Of a DNA stretch of 64,000 nt, positions 12,153-45,858 are shown piece after piece. The stretch is taken from contig JAYFMW010000020.1 of assembly GCA_042408215.1 (NCBI GenBank), positions 352,001 to 416,000 on the forward strand. The letters run 5' to 3'. This DNA is from Microcoleus sp. Its GTDB lineage: Bacteria; Cyanobacteriota; Cyanobacteriia; Cyanobacteriales; Microcoleaceae. The translations under genes and the position numbers were made by a program. The notes beneath the pieces were generated by a model. That model ran no database searches. It had not been told where the DNA came from and worked only from the letters and a program-made list of their open reading frames with translations. Within the stretch, counting starts at the first letter, position 1. Each line of letters starts with the position of its first letter.

Positions 12153-12434
12153 TTATAGCAGAAGGAAGTTCGGCAACGGATTATGTAACGGATGTAACGG
12201 ATGGATGGAATACAGAAGTTGGAAGGAAGAAGGAAGAATATCGATGTGAAAATGCAATTCTGGTATTCGTTTTGGTGATGGATAACGTCCTCGCCGTCGA
12301 GCAGGTTGCTATATATAATTGATAGCAGTTGATGGTTGACATTTGACGGTTGATTGTTATATAATAAAATCACATTCTTTTAAATTAGTATAGCAATCTC
12401 GACTTGAAATCAAAAATCAAAATAAGGCAAACCA

Positions 12435-13298
12435 ATGAAAAACAAAAAACTCGGAAACACTAATTTTAATATCAGCGCAATTGGTCTGGGAGGAATGCCA
12501 CTGTCCTTGAGCGGTCGGCCGACAGAATCTCAATCAATTGCAGTAATTCACCGCGCCCTCGATTTGGGCGTGACACTAATTGACACGGCAGATTCCTACT
12601 GTCAAGATGAATCCGACAAACACCATAATGAGGAACTGATTGCTAAAGCTTTACAACAGTATACTGGAGATATTAGAGCTGTCACCGTTGCTACAAAAGG
12701 CGGCTTAATGCGGCCTCAAGGTGCGTGGACGCGCAACGGTAATCCCCACCATTTGCGCAAGACAATTCGCGAAAGTTTTGAAGCCTTGGGCGGCCAAAAA
12801 CCGATCGACCTTTGGCAATATCACTCCCCCGATCCCAGTTATACCATCGAAGCAGCCCTGGCACCGGCAAAAGAAGCTGTAGAAGCAGGAATGATTCGAT
12901 TTATTGGAGTTTCCAACTTTTCTGTAGAACAAATCAAACGTGCCCGTGATACAGTAGAAATTGTCTCTGTTCAGAATCAATATAATCCTTGGCACAGAGA
13001 GCCAGAATCAGACGGCGTGCTGGAATATTGCGAAGCCGAAAAACTGACATTTTTTCCTTGGAGCCCTTTGGGAGGAAGTCGCCGGGCCACAAGTTTGCAA
13101 GATGTGCCGGCGATCGCGAAATTAGCCGCCGAAAAAAATGTCTCAGTTTACTGTATAGTATTAGCTTGGTTGATGGCAAAATCCCCCTGTGTCGTTCCGA
13201 TTCCCGGTGCGACAAAAGTATCGAGTATTGAAGACTCTTTGCGGGCGATCGAAGTTAAATTGACTGACGAGGATTTGCAACAAATCTCATTAAGTTAA
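12435..13298 (+). CDS. Aldo/keto reductase
   Basis: IGLGGM, IDTADSY, IGVSNF, VQNQYN, PIPGAT. Confidence 0.93.
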   Translation: MKNKKLGNTNFNISAIGLGGMPLSLSGRPTESQSIAVIHRALDLGVTLIDTADSYCQDESDKHHNEELIAKALQQYTGDIRAVTVATKGGLMRPQGAWTRNGNPHHLRKTIRESFEALGGQKPIDLWQYHSPDPSYTIEAALAPAKEAVEAGMIRFIGVSNFSVEQIKRARDTVEIVSVQNQYNPWHREPESDGVLEYCEAEKLTFFPWSPLGGSRRATSLQDVPAIAKLAAEKNVSVYCIVLAWLMAKSPCVVPIPGATKVSSIEDSLRAIEVKLTDEDLQQISLS

Positions 13299-35999: not shown

Positions 36000-36426
36000 T
36001 CAGCCCTCTGCTAGATCGCACCGACTTCTCAGTTGTTGAGGTGAGAAAATGGGAATAGGCGACCCTGGGAATCCATTCACATCACGGGTAACGATCGCCT
36101 CTAAGTCTAACTCGATCGCACAGGCTATCTGCACCGCATCTTCAAAATCCGGCAATCAAGGGCGCGATCGCTTCCTCCAGAACATCTCGATCCACCGCAC
36201 AAATTTCCATCAATGTCAAAAGTCGAGTTACGGCGGAAATCCCAGCTTCAGAACTCTTGGTTTGTCGTCCCACCAAATAATGCACATCCGTAACCGTTGT
36301 CGCCGACATACACCCTTCAACTCGCCCCGATTCAACTGCATTCAGTAAAAAAGCAGCATCCGCTAAAAAAGGTTCCCGGCCAAGCATTGCATCCAGTAAA
36401 ACATTGGTATCAAATAAAACTTTCAT
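36000..36426 (-). pseudogene. PIN-domain (VapC-like) toxin, frameshifted
   Basis: VLFDTNV; DFEDAVQ and IVTRD lie in another frame after ~36160. Confidence 0.82.
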
Positions 36427-36653
36427 CACAGATACTTTTGTACTAACCGCTCATCTAACATTGCCTTTACTTCTGCATCTGTAGGAGGTGGCGCGTCCGT
36501 TTTCGCAATGCCAATTAAACTCGCAGCTAAACCCTTCGGTTTCACCTTCGATCGGGGTTTCGGTTGGAGCGATCGCATCAAAGCATTGATTAACTGCCAT
36601 CGCTCCTCGGCAGACAATCTCAGCGATCGGTCTTGAAGTTCGCGTAATGTCAT
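36426..36653 (-). CDS. Putative antitoxin of the PIN toxin
   Basis: Small ORF overlapping the PIN start; LS.EERWQL motif. Confidence 0.7.
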   Translation of the reverse strand: MTLRELQDRSLRLSAEERWQLINALMRSLQPKPRSKVKPKGLAASLIGIAKTDAPPPTDAEVKAMLDERLVQKYL

Positions 36654-36705
36654 AATAGTTTTATCTTTGACAGAAAACATTGGACAAGCAGGCAAGTATA
36701 TAAAT

Positions 36706-36842
36706 CAATACGGTTTACTTAACACTATTTACGCCCGGAGATCCCCCTCGCATCCCCCGATCGAAGACCCACTTTAAGAGCTTCTTGTCCCCCCCTTGGG
36801 AAAGGGGGGTTAGGGGGGATCTGTCTTAAGTGAACCGTATTG
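36706..36842. mobile_element. 137-bp MITE with 17-bp TIR and perfect 10-bp TSD
   Basis: GTATATAAAT-CAATACGGTTTACTTAA...TTAAGTGAACCGTATTG-GTATATAAAT. Confidence 0.88.
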
Positions 36843-36934
36843 GTATATAAATACCCCCGCTTCAAAGTTTAGCGCCTCAAGTGATATAATGTTATCTTCT
36901 TAAAAAGACTTAATTTTTCGGAACAGTGAGTTAA

Positions 36935-37195
36935 ATGCCCTACAGTCAATTTAGCATCGAACAAATTAAGACAAATTTTGGCATAACTTTTACTAGGAGG
37001 GTTGGGTTGTTTGCCGATATTCCCGAAATCGAACCCAGCATTTTTTTGCAAGAAACTTTGCAATTCAATCTACCTTTAGCACTAGAAATAAATTCCGAGA
37101 AAGCTCGCTCCGAGCTAATTGTCGCGCCGATATTAGTTGAAATCAAAAAACGGCTGCCGGAACGGATGAGTTTATTTTCCGGTCGAGAATTCAAT
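36935..37195 (+). pseudogene. 5' half of conserved cyanobacterial PD-(D/E)xK-like protein interrupted by insertion
   Basis: SEKARSE.IVAPIL...SLFSGREFN joins in frame to [13 protein letters not shown] at 39828. Confidence 0.85.
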
Positions 37196-37350
37196 AGACC
37201 TCTTGCAAAATAATTTTATGCTATAATCAAGGGTTTGGCTTAAGTGGAGCAGATTGCAGGTTAGATCAGCACTTTACAATTATGAGTTAGCTCTCAGGTC
37301 TAAAACTCAAAGCCTTTAATTCTAACATAGATTTTTTTTGCAAGAGGTCT
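37196..37350. mobile_element. Left MITE (155 bp)
   Basis: AGACCTCTTGCAAAA...TTTTGCAAGAGGTCT flanked by AAT on both sides. Confidence 0.85.
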
Positions 37351-37454
37351 AATTATTAACTCACTACCCATTCAACCATTACCTCTACGTTGCCTTTTTC
37401 CATAAAAGCCTAAACTTCAATCAGCCTTGAATCATAAAAACTGAGCCGCAATGA

Positions 37455-37560
37455 TATAGCGTTTCTCAGAAAGATGAGGTATGCCGAGGTATGCTGCAAC
37501 CCTTACAGTATCAAGCTTTTCTTGGCAAAATGGCACCTCACTTTTTAGAGAAAGGCTATA
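37455..37560. mobile_element. TATAG...CTATA MITE
   Basis: TATAGCGTTTCTC...GAGAAAGGCTATA, internal TGAGGT/ACCTCA. Confidence 0.65.
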
Positions 37561-37578
37561 CCTCACGAAGGATTTGCG

Positions 37579-37665
37579 GCATAACGGTCTAGTTGAGCCG
37601 CTACAGATGACCTTTGGATTTTAAAGATCACTTTTGATGAAGTCGGCTCCAACGCAGTGTTAGGC
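37579..37665 (-). other. Integron attC recombination site
   Basis: Minus strand GCCTAAC-N5-GTTGGAGCCG...CGGCTCAAC-N6-GTTATGC, one extra base in L''; 2 nt after the antitoxin stop. Confidence 0.75.
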
Positions 37666-37667
37666 GG

Positions 37668-37955
37668 CTATACGGGAGTAGCTCGTAAACGGATACCAAG
37701 TGATTGTATAACTCTTAAAACAGTAGCAAATTCTGGATTACCTTCGAGGGACAAAGATTTATAGAGGCTTTCACGTCCTAATCCTGTTTCACGCGCAATA
37801 TTTGTCATTCCCTTAGATCTAGCAATGTCACCCAATGCTGCTACCACTAGATTAGGATCGCCATCTTCAAGAGCGGCTTCAAGATAAGCTGCCATATCTT
37901 CTTTAGTTTCTAGATGCTTTGCTGCATCCCAAAGATAGGTTGGAACTTTGTTCAT
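37668..37955 (-). CDS. Addiction module antidote, HTH (HI1420/HigA-like)
   Basis: YLEAALE, ALGDIARSKGM..IA..TGLGRESLYKSLS..GNP. Confidence 0.9.
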   Translation of the reverse strand: MNKVPTYLWDAAKHLETKEDMAAYLEAALEDGDPNLVVAALGDIARSKGMTNIARETGLGRESLYKSLSLEGNPEFATVLRVIQSLGIRLRATPV

Positions 37956-37972
37956 GAGATCTCCTATAGGTT

Positions 37973-38250
37973 TTATGATAAGTCTAAGGCTGTTTTGATA
38001 TCCCGATCTTGGGTACGTTTATCTCCACCTGCAAGCAAGACAATTAACGTATTTCCTCGCTGTATGAAATACACGCGATATCCTGCACCATAGTCAATAC
38101 GGAGTTCTGACACACCTTTTCCTATCGGTTTTACGTCACCAGGATTGCCCATAGACAATCGCCGAATACGTCGATACGCGCCCTAGCTTCCCGATCGCGC
38201 AGTGATTTAAACCACCGAGAATAGATTTCAGTCTCCCGAATTTCAATCAT
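37973..38250 (-). pseudogene. RelE/HigB-like addiction module killer (HI1419-like), frameshifted
   Basis: MIEIRETEIYSRWFKSLRDREARARID, then frameshift ~38168; GNPGDVK.IG.GVSELRIDYGAGYRVY..LLAGGDK. Confidence 0.85.
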
Positions 38251-38256
38251 GCTTTG

Positions 38257-38275
38257 ATTGTATCCTATGAGATAC
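38257..38275 (-). promoter_or_regulatory. Putative TA promoter -10 (TACAAT) overlapped by GTATC-N6-GATAC operator; leaderless start
   Basis: Palindrome at 38260-38275; -10 ends 6 nt before ATG 38250. Confidence 0.5.
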
Positions 38276-38420
38276 GGAGAAACAAGCAATAGGAAAACTT
38301 GCTTAACTACTTTTGTTCAAGCAAAGATAAGGTGCGTTACATTTCATTAACGCACCCTACAAGATCGGAGATCGCACTGTCATTATGAATATGTGCAACG
38401 TCAATTTTATTCCCAATAAA

Positions 38421-38999
38421 TTAAATTTTCGGAAAACAAGCGTCAAATACTTCAGTTAAGTCAATGATTTTCGCCTGCCAAGCCGCTTCTCCTTCTAATG
38501 CTTTTAGCGCAGAACCTCGGATCATAAATACATTGTCACCTGGATAATCGTTATTAGACAACATCTCACGCACTTCCATTTCAACTAATACTAGTGCTTC
38601 ATCATCATCGGATATATCGCACTTGTTCAGAAATGTCGCAATATAGGGAATACCAGCCTGTTTTGCCATTTCGACCTGTTCACTGGTTTGCGATGTCAGC
38701 CCTTCGGTCACAGAAACAACTAGAATTGCGCCATTGAATTTAACATCCCCTGCAAGCACATTGTTCAAATCATCGGCATTACTTGGATAGTCAACATGGG
38801 TATAGTGACGCACTGGAGTATCGTATTCTACAGTATGAGAAGTCGTAATTTGCTCGAAGGAATTTTCTTGACCACCAAATCGTTTCGCCGTTACCTTGGA
38901 TAGTGCCGCAGTAAGTGTAGTTTTACCGTGACCTGTATGACCAATGGTAATAATATTGTTGTGCTGTTTAGTACGTTGAAATGCTTCTTGTGATGACAT
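38421..38999 (-). CDS. Stand-alone EF-Tu G-domain homolog (no domains II/III)
   Basis: GHTGHGKTTLTAA, VEYDTPVRHYTHVD, GAILVV, FLNKCD, VEMEVRE, RGSALKALEG; ends at the domain I boundary. Confidence 0.85.
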   Translation of the reverse strand: MSSQEAFQRTKQHNNIITIGHTGHGKTTLTAALSKVTAKRFGGQENSFEQITTSHTVEYDTPVRHYTHVDYPSNADDLNNVLAGDVKFNGAILVVSVTEGLTSQTSEQVEMAKQAGIPYIATFLNKCDISDDDEALVLVEMEVREMLSNNDYPGDNVFMIRGSALKALEGEAAWQAKIIDLTEVFDACFPKI

Positions 39000-39167
39000 G
39001 GTGTTAACCAGAAGTGTTGTTTTTTTGATTTATAGAGAACAATTAATTTTACTTTACAAGATCGCCTCAAACCATGAAAGCTAAAATGTTCATTCAGTAG
39101 AATGCGTTGGTTTGACATCAACACATTCTACAAGATAGGCGATCGCACTGCGTTAGTTAAGATTAAA

Positions 39168-39395
39168 TTACAGCTCAATTACATTGCCAGCCTGACGACC
39201 AAGTTTTTGGCTTGGGCTTGGTATAAAGGTAAATTCTACCCTCTGCCCTTTCTCCAAAGTTTTGAAGCCTCTCTTCGTCATCTGGATTGCAGAAAAGTGT
39301 ACGTATATATCCTCAGTGCCGTCATCTGAACAGATAAAGCCAAAACCTTTTTCAGCATTGAAGAATGTTACTGTACCCGTCATTTTTTCAGACAT
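39168..39395 (-). CDS. Cold-shock domain protein (CspA family)
   Basis: RNP1 KGFGFI, RNP2 YVHF, GFKTL..GQRV.F. Confidence 0.92.
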
Positions 39396-39432
39396 AAAAA
39401 CTTCCTAAAAGTTATTTACTTGGCTGTCTAAT

Positions 39433-39501
39433 AGACATCTCCTAAAAAGACTTTCAAGAACAGGCAAGATGCCTGTTCCACAATAATTATGGGAGAGGTC
39501 T
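39433..39501. mobile_element. 69-bp AGAC...GTCT mini-MITE in the csp leader
   Basis: Same size and hairpin as 571-639. Confidence 0.65.
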
Positions 39502-39646
39502 AGTTTATAATTGTATCGCAGTTGCGGTACAATACTATATACAGCGGAATAATACCGCAGATCGAGGATGTATGTCAACCCCTTCTTACTGCCCATCGGA
39601 ATCTCCTTTCCTCGATTAATTGCTCGATCGCCAAACTCAACCCAAT

Positions 39647-39824
39647 AGACCTATTGCAAAAAAAATATGTGTTATACTTAAAAGTTTGCTCAAGTTTAGG
39701 TCAAATTTTGGTCAAACTTTGAATTATTGGGTTGATTGGCATCTCCTTAAACTTGCCCAGCCTACTAAATCATAAAATTAGCTAGACTTTCTATAATAGC
39801 ACAAAATTATTTTGCAATAGGTCT
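39647..39824. mobile_element. Right MITE (178 bp), inverted relative to the left MITE
   Basis: AGACCTATTGCAAAA...TTTTGCAATAGGTCT flanked by AAT on both sides. Confidence 0.85.
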
Positions 39825-39827
39825 AAT

Positions 39828-40166
39828 GTGGATGCTGCTAGGGGCTTGAGCGGTTATTGCGATTTTCTAATTAGCCGATCGCCCGAACAGCTAGTCATTG
39901 AATCCCCAGTTGTCGCCTTGGTTGAAGCCAAAAATGATAACATTCAATCCGGCTTAGGACAGTGCATGGCAGAAACGATCGCAGCCCAAATATTTAACCA
40001 GCGTCAAGAAAATGACATTCAGACAATTTATGGAGTTGTCACAACTGGGAGTATCTGGAAATTTTTTAAGTTAGAAGGAATTGCGATCGAGATGGATACC
40101 AATGAATATTTTATCAATAATGTTGGTAAAATACTCGGTATCTTAATAAATTTTATAGAGTCTTGA
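39828..40166 (+). pseudogene. 3' half of the interrupted gene starting at 36935
   Basis: GYCDF, LVEAK, GLGQC.AE..AAQ.FN, YGVVTTG..WKF. Confidence 0.85.
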
Positions 40167-40571: not shown

Positions 40572-40670
40572 TATCAAATCCGCAGGATATTTTGATATTA
40601 AATGCACCAACTTTCTGGGATCAAGCTGGAAAAAATATCAAGTTGTGTATGGATGTTTTCAGAATAATTG

Positions 40671-41030
40671 ATGCTTAAAAAATCGACAATTACACCGGAT
40701 TTGGTAGGGAAGCCCCAAATTTCAGGTAAACTGATTGCTGCGGGCTTTCACGCTCTTTCTGACCCCCTGCGGATTCAGATTTTGGAGTTGCTGCGGGAAC
40801 AGGAATTGTGCGTTTGCGAATTGTGCGATCGACTTTGTGTCCCTCAGTCTAAACTCTCTTTCCACCTCAAAACCCTAAAAGAAGCAGCTTTAGTCCGCAG
40901 CCGCCAAGAAGGGCGCTGGATCTACTACAGCCTCAATCTAGCTCAGTTTATCGCCCTGGAACAGTACCTGTCGGACTATCGGCGATGCGGCCAGCTCCTG
41001 CCGGCCCGCCCTTGCTCCGAGGCAGATTAA
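40671..41030 (+). CDS. arsR: ArsR/SmtB family repressor
   Basis: ALSDPLR, ELCVCELC, SKLSFHLK.L, GRWIYY. Confidence 0.92.
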   Translation: MLKKSTITPDLVGKPQISGKLIAAGFHALSDPLRIQILELLREQELCVCELCDRLCVPQSKLSFHLKTLKEAALVRSRQEGRWIYYSLNLAQFIALEQYLSDYRRCGQLLPARPCSEAD

Positions 41031-41080
41031 CCCATCAACATTTCTTAATGTGTTTATTGCCTATTTGTCTTCCATCATAC

Positions 41081-41108
41081 TTGACATATCAAATTTTATT
41101 GATATGAT
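41081..41108 (+). promoter_or_regulatory. Sigma70 promoter overlapped by ArsR box ATCAA-N6-TTGAT
   Basis: TTGACA-N16-TATGAT with ATATCAAATTTTATTGATAT between. Confidence 0.75.
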
Positions 41109-41145
41109 GCAACAGTACCCTTAGTTATGGCATTGGGTAAAATCA

Positions 41146-42174
41146 ATGAACCCAGCAGAAAAGCCCAAGGTTTTCGCACTTGGTATAATTGCTTTGACAA
41201 TCGGTGCGATCGCGCTCCTGAACTCCTGCGGACAAGTCCAGTCGCAAGAATCCCAGAGCATTAAAATAGACGGTTCCAGCACTGTCTATCCAATTACGGA
41301 TGCGATGGCAAAAGAATATCAAAATACGAATCCCAAAAAAGCATCAATTACTGTTGAATTCTCCGGGACCGGCGGCGGATTTAAAAAATTTTGTGCGGGC
41401 GAAACAGACATTAGCAACGCCTCGCGACCCATCCGCCCAGAAGAAATGGAAGCCTGCAACAAAGCTGGCATCCGCTACTACGAATTGCCTGTGGCATTTG
41501 ATGCTCTCACAGTAGTAGTTAACCCCAAAAATGACTGGGCAAAAGATATTAATCTAGAGGAATTGAAAAAACTTTGGGAACCAGCCGCTCAAGGAAAAAT
41601 TACCCGCTGGAATCAGATTAGACCTAATTGGCCAAACCGACCGATAACCCTCTACGGTGCAGGCAAAGATTCCGGTACATTTGACTACTTCACAGAAGCA
41701 ACAGTAGGTACTGCGAAAGCAAGTCGAACCGACTATACAGCTAGTGAAGACGATACCGTTTTAGTGCGCGGAGTTATCAACGATCCAAATGCCTTGGGTT
41801 ACTTTGGCCTAAGCTATTACGAAGCCAATCAAACTCAATTAAAAGCATTAGGAATTGACAATGGCAAAGGGCCAGTTATGCCCTCCCACGAAGCTGTAGA
41901 AAAAGCTCAATATCAACCTCTCGCCCGACCTCTTTTTATCTACGTCAGTTACACCGCCGCTCAAAGTAAAATAGAACTACGCAACTTTGTAGAATTCTAC
42001 ATGAAGAAAGCTCCGAGCTTAGTTAGTTCTGTGGGTTATATTCCTTTACCAAAAGAAGGCTATCAACTAATTTATCAGCACTTCTACAATGGCAAAGTTG
42101 GAACTGTGTTTGGCGGCGAGGCTCGTTTTGACTCAACAATTGGGGAGTTATTACGACAGCAGGCAACTTTTTAA
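41146..42174 (+). CDS. pstS: PstS-family phosphate-binding lipoprotein
   Basis: Lipobox [27 protein letters not shown]. Confidence 0.88.
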
Positions 42175-42210
42175 GTTTTTGTCAGCAATTTTAACTTACC
42201 ATTTAACTAA

Positions 42211-43362
42211 ATGAACCATCCTCAAGCAAGTAACTCACCCGTCCAAGCAGGAAGCAAGCTCAGTTTTTTTGAAAGATACCTCACCCTTTGGGTATTCCTT
42301 TGCATTTTAGGCGGTATTATTCTCGGTAGATTATTCCCCAGCGTCGCCGTCACCCTTGATGCTCTCAGCTTTTATCAGGTGTCAATTCCTATTGCCATTT
42401 GTCTATTTTTTATGATGTATCCCATCATGGTAAAAATTGACTTTACCCAGGCGGCAAATGCAGCGCGATCGCCCAAACCAGTGATCTTAACATTAGTGGT
42501 CAACTGGCTCATAAAACCATTGACAATGGTAGCATTTTCTCAGTTTTTCTTAGGTTGGCTATTTCGCCCCCTCATTACCGGCACAGAAATAATTCGTGGC
42601 AGTGAAGTCTCCATCGCTAGTTCCTACATTGCTGGTACAATATTATTAGGAATTGCCCCCTGTACTGCGATGGTTTTAATGTGGGGATATCTCTCCTACG
42701 GCAATCAAGGACATACCCTCGTTATGGTTGCTGTTAATTCCCTAGCCATGCTGTTTTTATATGCACCACTAGGGAGATGGCTGTTAGCAGCAAATGATTT
42801 AGTTGTGCCTTGGCAGACAATAGTATTGTCTGTATTCATTTATGTCGGTTTGCCCTTAGCCGCCGGAATGTATAGCCGTTTCTGGATTTTCAAACATAAA
42901 GGGCGAGAATGGTTTGAGCGAGAATTTATGCAATATCTGAGTCCAGTTGCTACCGCGGCCCTTTTGATTACGCTAATTCTTTTGTTTGCCTTCAAAGGAG
43001 AGTTGATTGTTAACAATCCTCTGCACATTCTCTTAATTGCTGTGCCTCTGTTTATCCAGACTAATTTCATTTTTATGATTTCTTATGTAGCAGCTTTAAA
43101 ACTCAACCTGTGCTACGAAGATTCAGCACCAGCCGCCCTGATTGGGGCCAGTAATCATTTTGAGGTGGCGATTGCTACGGCTGTGATGCTTTTTGGCTTA
43201 AACTCAGGTGCAGCATTGGCTACAGTTGTCGGTGTTTTAATTGAGGTTCCAGTGATGTTAATGTTAGTAGAATTCTGCAAGAAAACCGCATTTTGGTTTC
43301 CCCGCCAACCAGAAACAGCCTCACTGCGAGATCCCCGTTGTCGTCCTAATTTAAATAGCTAG
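42211..43362 (+). CDS. acr3: ACR3-family arsenite efflux transporter
   Basis: FFERYLT.W, MMYP, APCTAMV, SNHFE, GVLIEVP. Confidence 0.95.
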
Positions 43363-43368
43363 AATCTC

Positions 43369-44028
43369 ATGAATAAATTCACTCACAAACCGAGAATTCT
43401 GTTTTTATACGGCTCTTTAAGAGAGCGTTCTTATAGCCGCTTGTTGGCAGAAGAATCTGCTACAATTATTCAGAATTTCGGTGCAGAAGTTAGGTTTTTT
43501 AATCCTCTGGAATTGCCAATTTATGGTAGTGTTCCTGATACTCATCCCAAGGTTCAAGAGTTGCGGGAATTGAGCCTGTGGTCGGAGGGTCAAGTCTGGT
43601 CTAGTCCAGAAATGCACGGCAATATTACGGGCATTATGAAAAACCAAATTGACTGGATTCCTTTAAGTATTGGGGCTGTCAGACCGACTCAAGGCAGAAC
43701 TTTGGCGGTGATGCAAGTTAGCGGCGGTTCCCAGTCTTTTAATGCTGTCAATACTTTGAGAATTTTGGGCCGCTGGATGCGGATGTTTACGATTCCAAAT
43801 CAGTCTTCTGTTGCTAAGGCTTATCAGGAGTTTAATGAGGATGGAACAATGAAGGATTCGCCTTATCGCGATCGGGTTATTGATGTGATGGAGGAATTGT
43901 ACAAGTTTACTCTGTTGTTGCGGGAGGAAGTTGACTATTTGACCGATCGCCACAGCGAACGCAAGGAAAAAACGGCCAAAGAGACGATCGCCGTAGCAAA
44001 TAGCGCCCTTGAAACACGGGGCGATTGA
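43369..44028 (+). CDS. arsH: Arsenical resistance protein ArsH
   Basis: [30 protein letters not shown]. Confidence 0.96.
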
Positions 44029-44215
44029 AATCACCGGGCGATTGAAATCACCGGGCGATTGAAAATCGGGCGATTGAAATCACCGGGCGATTGAAATCGC
44101 GGCTACACAGACAAAACCCGCCTTCGCGGGTTGAAGAATCAAGAATTTTTCTTCAGTCTGCGGAGGCAGACTTCGTTTGTGTGCCCGTAAAACTTCGCGG
44201 TTTCTAACCGCCGAG
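44020..44215. repeat. REP doublet of the tnpA-associated family with short tandem expansions
   Basis: GGCGATTGAAATCGCGGCTACAC...CGCGGTTTCTAACCGCCG. Confidence 0.75.
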
Positions 44216-44249
44216 GCTAAAAATTAACAACTTACAACTAACCAAAACC

Positions 44250-44645
44250 ATGAAAAAAGTAATGTTTGTTTGCAAAAGAAACTCCTGCCGATCGCAAATG
44301 GCAGAAGGATTCGCTAAAACCATCGGAGCCGGCAAGATTGGAGTCACCAGTTCCGGGTTAGAATCAAGCAGAGTTCATCCGACAGCCATTGAAGTCATGT
44401 CTGAAATCGGCATTGATATCACAGATCAAACATCCAATCCGTTAGGCGAATTCAATGCAGAAGACTACGATGCCGTAATTTCTCTGTGCGGCTGCGGCGT
44501 GAATTTACCCGAAGCGTGGGTATTGCGAGAAGTGTTTCAAGATTGGCAACTCGACGATCCAGACGGACAACCCATTGAAACCTTTCACCGCGTGCGAGAT
44601 GAAATTAAAGCACGAGTTGAGAAATTAGTTGATTCTCTCAAATAA
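44250..44645 (+). CDS. arsC: Arsenate reductase, cyanobacterial LMW-PTP type
   Basis: CKRNSCRSQMAEG, SLCGC, DDP. Confidence 0.95.
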   Translation: MKKVMFVCKRNSCRSQMAEGFAKTIGAGKIGVTSSGLESSRVHPTAIEVMSEIGIDITDQTSNPLGEFNAEDYDAVISLCGCGVNLPEAWVLREVFQDWQLDDPDGQPIETFHRVRDEIKARVEKLVDSLK

Positions 44646-44651
44646 GAATTA

Positions 44652-44774
44652 CCCGGCGATTGAAATCGCGACTACAGAAACAAAACCCGCCTGCGCGGGT
44701 TGAAGAATCAAGGATTTCTCTTCAGTCCACGGAGGTGGACTTCGGTTGTGTAGACGCGGTTTCTAACCGCCGGG
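44652..44774. repeat. REP doublet (REPIN-like)
   Basis: CCCGGCGATTGAAATCGCGACTAC...GTAGACGCGGTTTCTAACCGCCGGG. Confidence 0.78.
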
Positions 44775-44871
44775 GCTTTGTAGGTTCCTCTGAATTCATG
44801 CTAAATTATGAGAGGCGTTCCACCAGAACGCCTCTAAATCTGTTGTGAACATAAACCAACCAGACTAGCAC

Positions 44872-45858
44872 ATGATTCAGACCGCAGTAACGCCTTTCAG
44901 AAACAAACTCAACTCAGCTTTAACTAAAAAGCAAATTACAGTTTTACAAATTAATCTAGGGAAACGCTGCAACCTTGCTTGCACTCACTGTCACGTAGAA
45001 GCTAGCCCGAAACGAACTGAGGAACTTTCACCAGAAATTTGCGACCAATTAATTGAAATAATTCGCAAATTTCCCCAAATTCAAACTGTTGACCTCACCG
45101 GCGGTGCTCCCGAAATGCTTTACGGTTTTAAACCGCTGGCGGAAGCTGCAAGGGCGACAGGAAAAGAGGTAATTGTTCGTTCTAATTTAACAATTTATTT
45201 TGAAAAAGGGTTTGAAGATATTCCCGAATATTGCGCGAAACACCAACTCAGAATTATTGCGTCTCTTCCCTGTTACCAAGCTGATAATGTTGACAAAATG
45301 CGCGGTAGTGGCGTTTTTGACAGTTCGATTCTGGCGCTGCAAAAGCTAAATCAATTAGGATATGGCAAAGATGCAGATTTAGTTCTGGATTTGGTTTATA
45401 ATCCGCAAGTGCCAACTACAGAAGATTTTTATCTGACAGCGGAACAGGGTAAGTTAGAGCGAGATTATCAGGTTTATTTAGAAGCACATTTTGGGATTGT
45501 TTTCAATCAATTGTTCACGATTACTAATTTGCCGGTGGGACGGACAAAGTTTCATTTGGAACACAAAAAGCTGCACCAACCTTATCTTGGGTTTTTGGAG
45601 GATAATTTTAATCCTAATACTGTGGAACATTTAATGTGTCGCAATGAATTGTCGATCGACTATTTGGGCAATGTCTACGACTGCGATTTTAACCAGATGG
45701 AAAATCGGCCGGCTAAAACTCGCACAGGTGAAACCATCACAGTCGCTAAATTGCTCGAAACTGGCAGTTTAGATTTGATTCAAGAGGTGCAAACTGCTGC
45801 TTATTGTTACGGCTGTACGGCGGGTTGCGGTTCTAGCTGCGGCGGCACTTTGATTTGA
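44872..45858 (+). CDS. arsS: Arsenosugar biosynthesis radical SAM protein ArsS-like
   Basis: CNLACTHCH, TGGAPE, YDCDFNQM, CYGCTAGCGSSCGG; ars context. Confidence 0.85.
   Translation: MIQTAVTPFRNKLNSALTKKQITVLQINLGKRCNLACTHCHVEASPKRTEELSPEICDQLIEIIRKFPQIQTVDLTGGAPEMLYGFKPLAEAARATGKEVIVRSNLTIYFEKGFEDIPEYCAKHQLRIIASLPCYQADNVDKMRGSGVFDSSILALQKLNQLGYGKDADLVLDLVYNPQVPTTEDFYLTAEQGKLERDYQVYLEAHFGIVFNQLFTITNLPVGRTKFHLEHKKLHQPYLGFLEDNFNPNTVEHLMCRNELSIDYLGNVYDCDFNQMENRPAKTRTGETITVAKLLETGSLDLIQEVQTAAYCYGCTAGCGSSCGGTLI

Follow-up and report, generated by a model that had tools for sequence, protein, structure and literature searches.

A transposase-free composite bounded by two unlike IS5-family-derived miniature elements splits a nuclease-family gene in a Microcoleus chromosome

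We analyzed a 64,000-nucleotide stretch of Microcoleus sp. DNA, here called the window (positions 352001-416000 of contig C20), from a 7.36-Mb genome (G000) that is assembled in 30 contigs, the smallest of 20 kb, and is 99.98% complete. In the window, a gene of the PD-(D/E)XK nuclease family is split by an element of about 2.6 kb, in which two inverted MITEs (miniature transposable elements with inverted repeats) enclose 2,296 bp with three or four passenger genes. We put the probability that this is a real non-autonomous, MITE-bounded composite transposon at about 0.9.

The left MITE (MITE-L, 37196-37350, plus strand) is 155 bp long and corresponds to a parent of the IS5 insertion sequence (IS) family with an internal deletion. 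The right MITE (MITE-R, 39647-39824, minus strand) is 178 bp long, consisting of a 167-bp family member with an 11-bp insertion. Both have their left end facing outward, and both are present as one copy each in G000. An earlier sequence-only reading of this region had given these positions, lengths, and inverted arrangement, which were exact on recheck. The termini follow the pattern AGACC(T)(C/A)TTGCAAAA. Over the first 30 nucleotides, the two outer ends agree at 27 positions and the two inner ends at 26, compared to 22 to 25 for the four outer-inner pairs, as expected from the earlier description of like outer and like inner ends. A 16-nt end pattern occurred four times in the window and never in 50 Markov resamples of it, and a 17-nt form of the end was present in 69 of 79 genomes of the genus, with zero matches for the reversed control. 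AAT stands at both outer edges of the element (37193-37195 and 39825-39827, plus strand) and also at both inner MITE flanks, giving four AAT flanks in all. The element lacks a transposase by its open reading frames (ORFs) and by Pfam and NCBIfam profiles of the enclosed proteins, which also agrees with the earlier reading.

The interrupted gene gave the clearest view of the insertion. Its 5' part (36935-37195, plus strand) and 3' part (39828-40166, plus strand) are both open, and the latter has 85 to 96% identity to the intact gene of relatives among the top matches. Removal of 37196-39827 rejoined the two parts in frame, as previously proposed, and restored an open 199-amino-acid frame, the length of the intact G014 orthologue. 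The gene family was assigned with PADLOC (PDLC01472, PD_DExK, E value of 1.7e-52 on an orthologue), and Pfam gave zero matches for the host gene. An intact orthologue lies at L003:1243-1842. A DNA search of 60 relatives yielded 19 host-gene loci (L002 to L020), which we scanned with a junction regular expression for the empty site. An uninterrupted site with a single AAT was found in 17 of the 19, so the empty allele that the earlier reading called for does exist in relatives. At the two loci missed by the expression (L010 and L018), the BLAST matches abut, and one of the 17 empty-site loci (L019) carries a frameshift just downstream of the site. In G014, the neighbors of the host gene are the HEAT-repeat gene and arsR that flank it in the window too, which argues that the host DNA has not been inverted. 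The host DNA is collinear and contiguous across the insertion with zero bases lost. Thus, an inversion between independent MITE insertions, named beforehand as a way for the model to fail, is excluded by collinearity and synteny on both sides. A different MITE with the same ends was also seen in the same host gene of G017 (L013:1370-1490), near the insertion site of the window.

We traced both MITEs to a parent of 1,034 bp (range, 1,032 to 1,039 bp) with an IS5-family transposase (NF033581, PF13613, and PF13359). Its transposase is 64% identical to that of ISMae4 over 193 amino acids and 57% identical to that of IS702 over about 190, these names being taken from annotations. The left end of ISMae4, preceded by AGT, is nearly the same as that of the parent. 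Presumably these elements belong to the ISL2 group; our literature search found no paper that settles this grouping or the target size. MITE-L retains about 53 nt of the parent left end and about 86 nt of the right end; MITE-R has only some 45 nt in common with the parent at either end. In local alignment, the two MITEs match best over their first 32 nt, and only there. By these comparisons, both are IS5-family derived but form two separate families, which replaces the earlier view of them as diverged copies of one element. The outer ends match the parent left end at 30/30 and 27/30 positions. Pairing of like ends is plausible, since the left and right ends of the parent themselves share 27 of 30 nt.

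The loci examined contained 41 distinct stand-alone MITE copies (16 left type and 25 right type, the window's two included). The MITE-L copies of relatives are 91 to 96% identical, and the right-type copies are 165 to 174 bp long. The flanks matched in 26 of the 41 copies. Because 78 of their 82 flanks read A-N-T, sequence alone does not settle whether the duplication is 3 bp or, as the earlier reading had allowed, 1 bp; the AAT duplication at the outer ends itself held. DDE transposases make a staggered cut of 2 bp or more, and so we favor the 3-bp duplication. Parent matches occurred in 41 of 78 genomes of the genus, and 7 of 10 full-length parent copies had matching 3-bp flanks. The left-end pattern matched 46 of 79 genomes. 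We also observed two parent copies fused back to back with their right ends outward (L104:1247-2956, G068) and, in G017, 460 family ends.

We examined seven close MITE pairs outside G000. One, in G087 (L145:2743-4052), is a clean second composite, formed by two direct MITE-L copies around a gene of the metallo-beta-lactamase fold and totaling 1,310 bp. Its flanks are contiguous in relatives (clear in 4 of the 11 loci checked on both sides), its duplication is ATT with one change, and its cargo occurs MITE-free in both G030 and G078, where the cuts fall at the inner MITE positions. The G017 pair around a sulfotransferase gene (L032:3967-5935) is probably a third composite. Its outer flanks are ACT/ACT, and its inner flanks, AAT and ATT, match MITE-free donor sites; the empty site matches over only 8 bp on the right. 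In G069, where all flanks are ATT and no orthologous empty site was present in four other genomes, the pair is possibly a composite. The G070 locus, with three copies and a stray end, and the G081 locus, where the contig stops inside the second copy, were not resolved as composites. The G093 and G083 pairs were rejected as composites and count as independent insertions, since each MITE has its own duplication and the outer flanks differ. The left copy of G083 shows 100% identity to an inverted copy 9 kb away (L142:3101-3267 and 12295-12461). In G084 (C71), only the second copy is present, and the first site is empty with the gene intact there. This is a local hop that produces a precursor pair. 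The genus holds side by side the parent, the lone MITE, the local pair, and the moved composite with its donor and empty site.

Taken together, these data fit a four-step model. First, at least two MITE families descend from a 1,034-bp IS5-family element; they have retained its ends and target A-N-T, as the family comparisons show. Second, one copy of each family would have inserted independently, in inverted orientation and 2.3 kb apart, as is seen for pairs in relatives; the inner AAT copies would then be the scars of two separate MITE insertions around cyanobacterial DNA. Third, the junctions suggest that both outer left ends were joined in a single reaction to an AAT of the nuclease-family gene, and the AAT duplicated, by a parent-type transposase working in trans. 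Two left ends flank one AAT with no host base lost, and this calls for a concerted reaction. A single MITE insertion is ruled out because both outer junctions are left ends, and one MITE would leave a right end. Fourth, the event would have occurred in a cell with an active parent copy. That parent may since have been lost from the lineage or left unassembled, or the filled allele may have come from another strain. From the junctions and the G087 case, we infer that the composite moves as a unit with transposase supplied in trans. The element is probably immobile now, and its persistence may have been helped by its inverted, unlike ends, which cannot be removed by homologous recombination.

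The alternative that survives best, although we consider it very unlikely, is inside-out insertion from a small circle, either a plasmid or an excised circle bearing both MITEs, with the cargo being the rest of the circle. Such an event would leave an identical geometry. It would also suit the finding that neither MITE nor the cargo has a second copy in G000 and that cyanobacterial plasmids carry toxin-antitoxin pairs related to this one as well as additional gamma-type tuf genes. However, the cargo has no replication or mobilization gene. It also holds repeats that are spread over this chromosome, and the G087 composite took up a segment that is present MITE-free in other genomes of the genus. 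The cargo carries cyanobacterial repeats and a HIP1 octamer. These repeats suggest that it resided in a cyanobacterial genome before it moved.

Stepwise build-up in place, in which one MITE came first and the cargo and second MITE were added later by recombination, adjacent transposition, or inversion, is largely refuted and slightly more improbable than the circle. Each MITE does have its own AAT pair, and the mismatched flanks of 15 of the 41 family copies imply that rearrangements at these ends are common. Against this, a lone MITE leaves a right end at one junction, whereas both junctions here are left ends. Recombination through a MITE would yield direct repeats of one family rather than inverted copies of two, and no base is missing from the host gene, whose sequence is contiguous and collinear.

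We then looked at the junctions in sequencing runs. Parts of the stretch occurred in 19 runs from 8 studies, 11 of which contained half or more of its words. Junctions were examined in the assembled contigs of 4 of the 19 runs, from 2 studies; the source sample may be one of them. Contigs of X14, X15, and X19 cross the left junction, each showing 0 differences, and contigs of X14, X15, and X17 cross the right one with 0, 4, and 3 differences, respectively. With both junctions bridged by contigs from two studies, misassembly, another way in which the earlier model might have failed, was not borne out. X15 carries cargo single-nucleotide polymorphisms and indels at the same insertion site, which fits the variant proteins P0121 and P0124 and implies that the insertion is common to slightly diverged strains. 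In X14, the empty-site joint was also present, at a depth of 2.9. The contigs there end at 37179 and 39862 instead of at the junctions, a pattern that points more to a related strain than to precise excision. An assembly artefact or chimera with DNA of a co-occurring proteobacterium, although prompted by the proteobacterial look of two cargo genes (csp and the EF-Tu-like gene) and by the empty-site joint coexisting in X14, can practically be dismissed given the junction contigs from two studies, the X15 variants at the same site, the cyanobacterial repeats and HIP1 octamer of the cargo, and single-copy MITEs that offer an assembler no repeat to misjoin.

Several observations weigh against a composite moved by a transposase in trans. 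AAT is the commonest target class, and with all four flanks AAT, a matching duplication is weak evidence alone. Only one of the seven other close pairs is a clean composite. All nine parent copies with a found start codon carry a frameshift or stop, and no active source of the transposase was seen among the 10 full-length copies. In G000, the parent transposase was not found (no tblastn match at an E value of 0.01, no parent match, and no PF13613); because all contigs are at least 20 kb, repeats may be missing from this assembly. The sole PF13359 match in G000 was discarded: it is a broken piece at the edge of a contig, and the parent protein has no match to it. Thus, an autonomous-type IS with the predicted ends is present in the genus but did not turn up in G000, and movement of the cargo by the MITE pair is supported by the junctions and the empty site, with the trans-acting source only deduced. 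No contig or long read spanning the entire element was found in the four runs examined. One X19 contig links 37343 to 38063, dropping the antitoxin gene and the attC-like site of the cargo, and is unexplained.

The donor site of the cargo, too, was not recovered by any of our searches. When 78 genomes of the genus were searched with the DNA, only short repeats matched, and a family-wide DNA search with the toxin-antitoxin part gave only attC-like sites and distant relatives. A protein search of 143 genomes of the family found one other gene encoding only the EF-Tu G domain (Planktothrix locus L098), and none came up when 400 genomes of the order were searched by motif. A metagenome scan returned 80 loci at 39 to 51% identity, as ordinary EF-Tu would be, 5 of which were used in trees, and ordinary EF-Tu overwhelmed a profile-free search of cluster representatives. 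No plasmid record covered 80% of the element. The cargo was not found elsewhere in G000, where the earlier reading had proposed to look for it, and only one insertion site is known for it.

All cargo genes lie on the minus strand. The sequence-only reading had listed an attC toxin-antitoxin cassette, an EF-Tu G-domain gene, and csp, and all of these parts are present; the toxin gene, however, is frameshifted. The EF-Tu-like gene (38421-38999, minus strand, PF00009) encodes 192 amino acids. Compared to EF-Tu, the protein has no domains 2 and 3, lacks about 12 residues of switch I, has Asn at the position of the catalytic His84, and has an altered P-loop by alignment. Its score is far below the TIGR00485 cut-off, and with domain 1 only it does not qualify as EF-Tu. 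It shares the fold of EF-Tu domain 1: the predicted model (pLDDT of 85) has a TM-score of about 0.9 to domain 1 of Escherichia coli EF-Tu, and identity to EF-Tu domain 1 and the divergent gamma-type tuf products encoded on Planktothrix agardhii plasmids is 52 to 59%. A homologue from Planktothrix PCC 11201 (L098:7511-8080) is 64 to 66% identical and has the same switch I deletion. Between these two genes, dN is 0.21 and dS is 1.02 over 186 codons (dN/dS of about 0.21), and thus the gene is under purifying selection.

Six such proteins, including the G-domain-only proteins of Planktothrix PCC 11201 and Thiolinea, formed a clade (100/99) outside the cyanobacterial tuf genes and among gamma-type EF-Tu, in a midpoint-rooted tree with long branches. 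Given those branches and that rooting, we name no donor. These relationships point to a small conserved family of G-domain-only proteins in cyanobacteria and Thiolinea (P0004, P0011, P0015, and P0120). Gene exchange between Beggiatoaceae and cyanobacteria is reported in one study (PMC4679880), which may bear on the Thiolinea homologue. On the G-domain-only protein and on cyanobacterial csp genes, our literature search found nothing. We also saw divergent gamma-type tuf paralogues of full length in cyanobacteria (L329:5388-6569, L278:1498-2679, and L279:910-2088), and such genes occur on four Planktothrix agardhii plasmids; one inspected plasmid paralogue adjoins a DEAD/DEAH helicase gene. A 35-nt direct repeat, 83% identical and with a HIP1-like core (38345-38379 and 39116-39150), flanks the EF-Tu-like gene and could mark a separate earlier insertion.

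The csp gene (39168-39395, minus strand) encodes a CspA-like protein of 75 amino acids (PF00313, E value of 1.6e-22). It is the only strong cold-shock domain match in G000, and matches at E values below 1e-7 were found in 8 of 400 genomes drawn from the phylum, so that strong matches are rare among cyanobacteria. A 69-bp MITE with related ends of the AGACATCTCC type lies in the csp leader (39433-39501) and has mismatched flanks, AAT/AGT. Its family has AGACATCTCC ends and A-N-T duplications genome-wide, with 32 near-full-length matches in G000. A sigma-70-like promoter match (11/12) lies upstream of csp (39549-39578, minus strand) and was the best of 10 sites, a count that equals chance level (shuffled mean, 9.9). 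We rejected the RF01766 cspA thermoregulator, which scored 74.6 against a 78-bit threshold; the alignment rests on the coding region, and its leader part crosses the 69-bp MITE.

The toxin-antitoxin part contains an intact addiction-module antitoxin gene (37668-37955, minus strand; TIGR02684 and PF21716) and a RelE/ParE-type toxin gene (37973-38250, minus strand; TIGR02683) that is frameshifted near codon 28-29. Two pieces of the latter match TIGR02683 positions 2-26 and 33-91, and a three-frame read confirmed the shift; an intact relative of 96 amino acids is present in L021. Directly after the antitoxin stop is an attC-like site (37579-37665, minus strand), found by regular expression and folding, so that an ORF is followed by R''/R' cores and a bottom-strand hairpin, as in a cassette. 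The bottom strand folds end to end with a z score of -1.6. Eight related sites in the cyanobacterial family share the cores, and six of them are at or just after the end of a same-strand ORF. Across the eight, 17 consensus pairs were found, only 2 with compensatory changes, and the structural support is therefore modest. A GTTAAGC motif (38301-38307, minus strand) is a candidate cassette core and putative 5' boundary. Since it forms a short hairpin, it may be an operator instead.

No integron integrase was detected in G000 (no TIGR02249 match over the cut-off). DNA similarity found one attC-like site in the genome, fewer than the at least two that the CALIN definition asks for (10.1101/030866). 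Folding did not support further attC sites behind csp or behind the EF-Tu-like gene. A tandem toxin-antitoxin locus in G044 had no attC by regular expression. In this cyanobacterial family, lone attC-like sites also follow genes of unrelated kinds, helicase-like and toxin-antitoxin genes among them (L263 to L267, L269, L275, and L098:5703-5796).

Further mobile DNA and accessory genes lie in and around the element. Inverted-repeat miniature elements of other families were found inside it at 37453-37562 (21 partial matches in G000 and 1 full-length match) and beside it at 36700-36855. A PIN-domain toxin-antitoxin pair (36142-36632) is just upstream of the host gene and was not seen between the HEAT-repeat gene and the host gene of G014 among ORFs of at least 100 amino acids. 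Downstream, at 40668-45858, arsR is followed by genes that, judging by translations alone, resemble pstS, acr3, arsH, arsC, and arsS, which we take together to be an arsenic-resistance cluster.

A broader proposal, which we regard as doubtful, joins mechanism and cargo. ISMae4/IS702-type MITEs might be a routine transposase-free capture system in the genus, with local hops creating pairs and any two family ends, even unlike ones, moving the DNA between them. The window might then hold a working translation-stress module, in which a strongly promoted csp, encoding a cold-shock RNA chaperone that most cyanobacteria here lack, is cotranscribed with a catalytically disabled EF-Tu G-domain protein of an undescribed family, perhaps a nucleotide or EF-Ts sink or a decoy for factors that target EF-Tu. 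Apart from this proposal, composites of this kind are nearly invisible to annotation because they encode no transposase. With its stages side by side in one genus, the mechanism can be counted across genomes, and the cargo points to the small conserved G-domain-only family.

MITE-bounded composites themselves are already published. TIME-COMP1 and TIME-COMP2 were trapped experimentally, the latter having arisen when a TIME hopped and the parts then moved together (Szuplewska et al. 2014, PMC4133298). IMU and other TIME-COMPs have been reviewed, with no non-TIME example in Enterobacteriaceae known to that review (Gomi and Yano 2026, PMC13367494), and in Acinetobacter, a pair of 439-bp MITEs carried an integron into a gene (PMC3934969; see also PMC10969869 and PMC6382973). 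The cases in these papers are Tn3 derived or involve the 439-bp Acinetobacter element, and most surround resistance genes. Thus, the MITE-driven gene-capture route proposed in the sequence-only reading is supported but, on the accounts in PMC4133298, PMC3934969, and PMC13367494, is not a new kind. Our own literature search, which left older cyanobacterial IS surveys mostly outside, found no IS5-derived, two-unlike-MITE, or cyanobacterial composite.

Like the TIME-COMPs as described there, the window element has two MITEs, direct or inverted in those cases, that bound a core free of transposition genes, with transposase supplied in trans, an outer target duplication, and, here, an empty site elsewhere. 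It resembles TIME-COMP1, which is 2,469 bp, inverted, and disrupts an ORF, and also TIME-COMP2, where the second MITE comes by a separate hop. TIMEs, in the same accounts, are Tn3 derived, with 5- to 6-bp duplications and identical or nearly identical copies, mostly on plasmids of Pseudomonas or Enterobacteriaceae, whereas the window element has no Tn3-family repeats, IS5-derived ends, a 3-bp A-N-T target, and two unlike families on a cyanobacterial chromosome. The IMU and 439-bp cases likewise use a MITE pair to carry integron-type cassette DNA into a gene with target duplication, but their MITE copies are identical, the duplications are 5 bp long, and the cargo is class 1 integron resistance DNA; compared to these, the window element has a lone attC-like site, no intI in its genome, and no resistance gene. 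ISMae4 and IS702 are autonomous single elements, and the window has only miniature derivatives. Taken together, the element shows no new chemistry and works like a TIME-COMP but is not one; what is new is the extension of this route to IS5-family ends, an unlike MITE pair, and a cyanobacterial chromosome.

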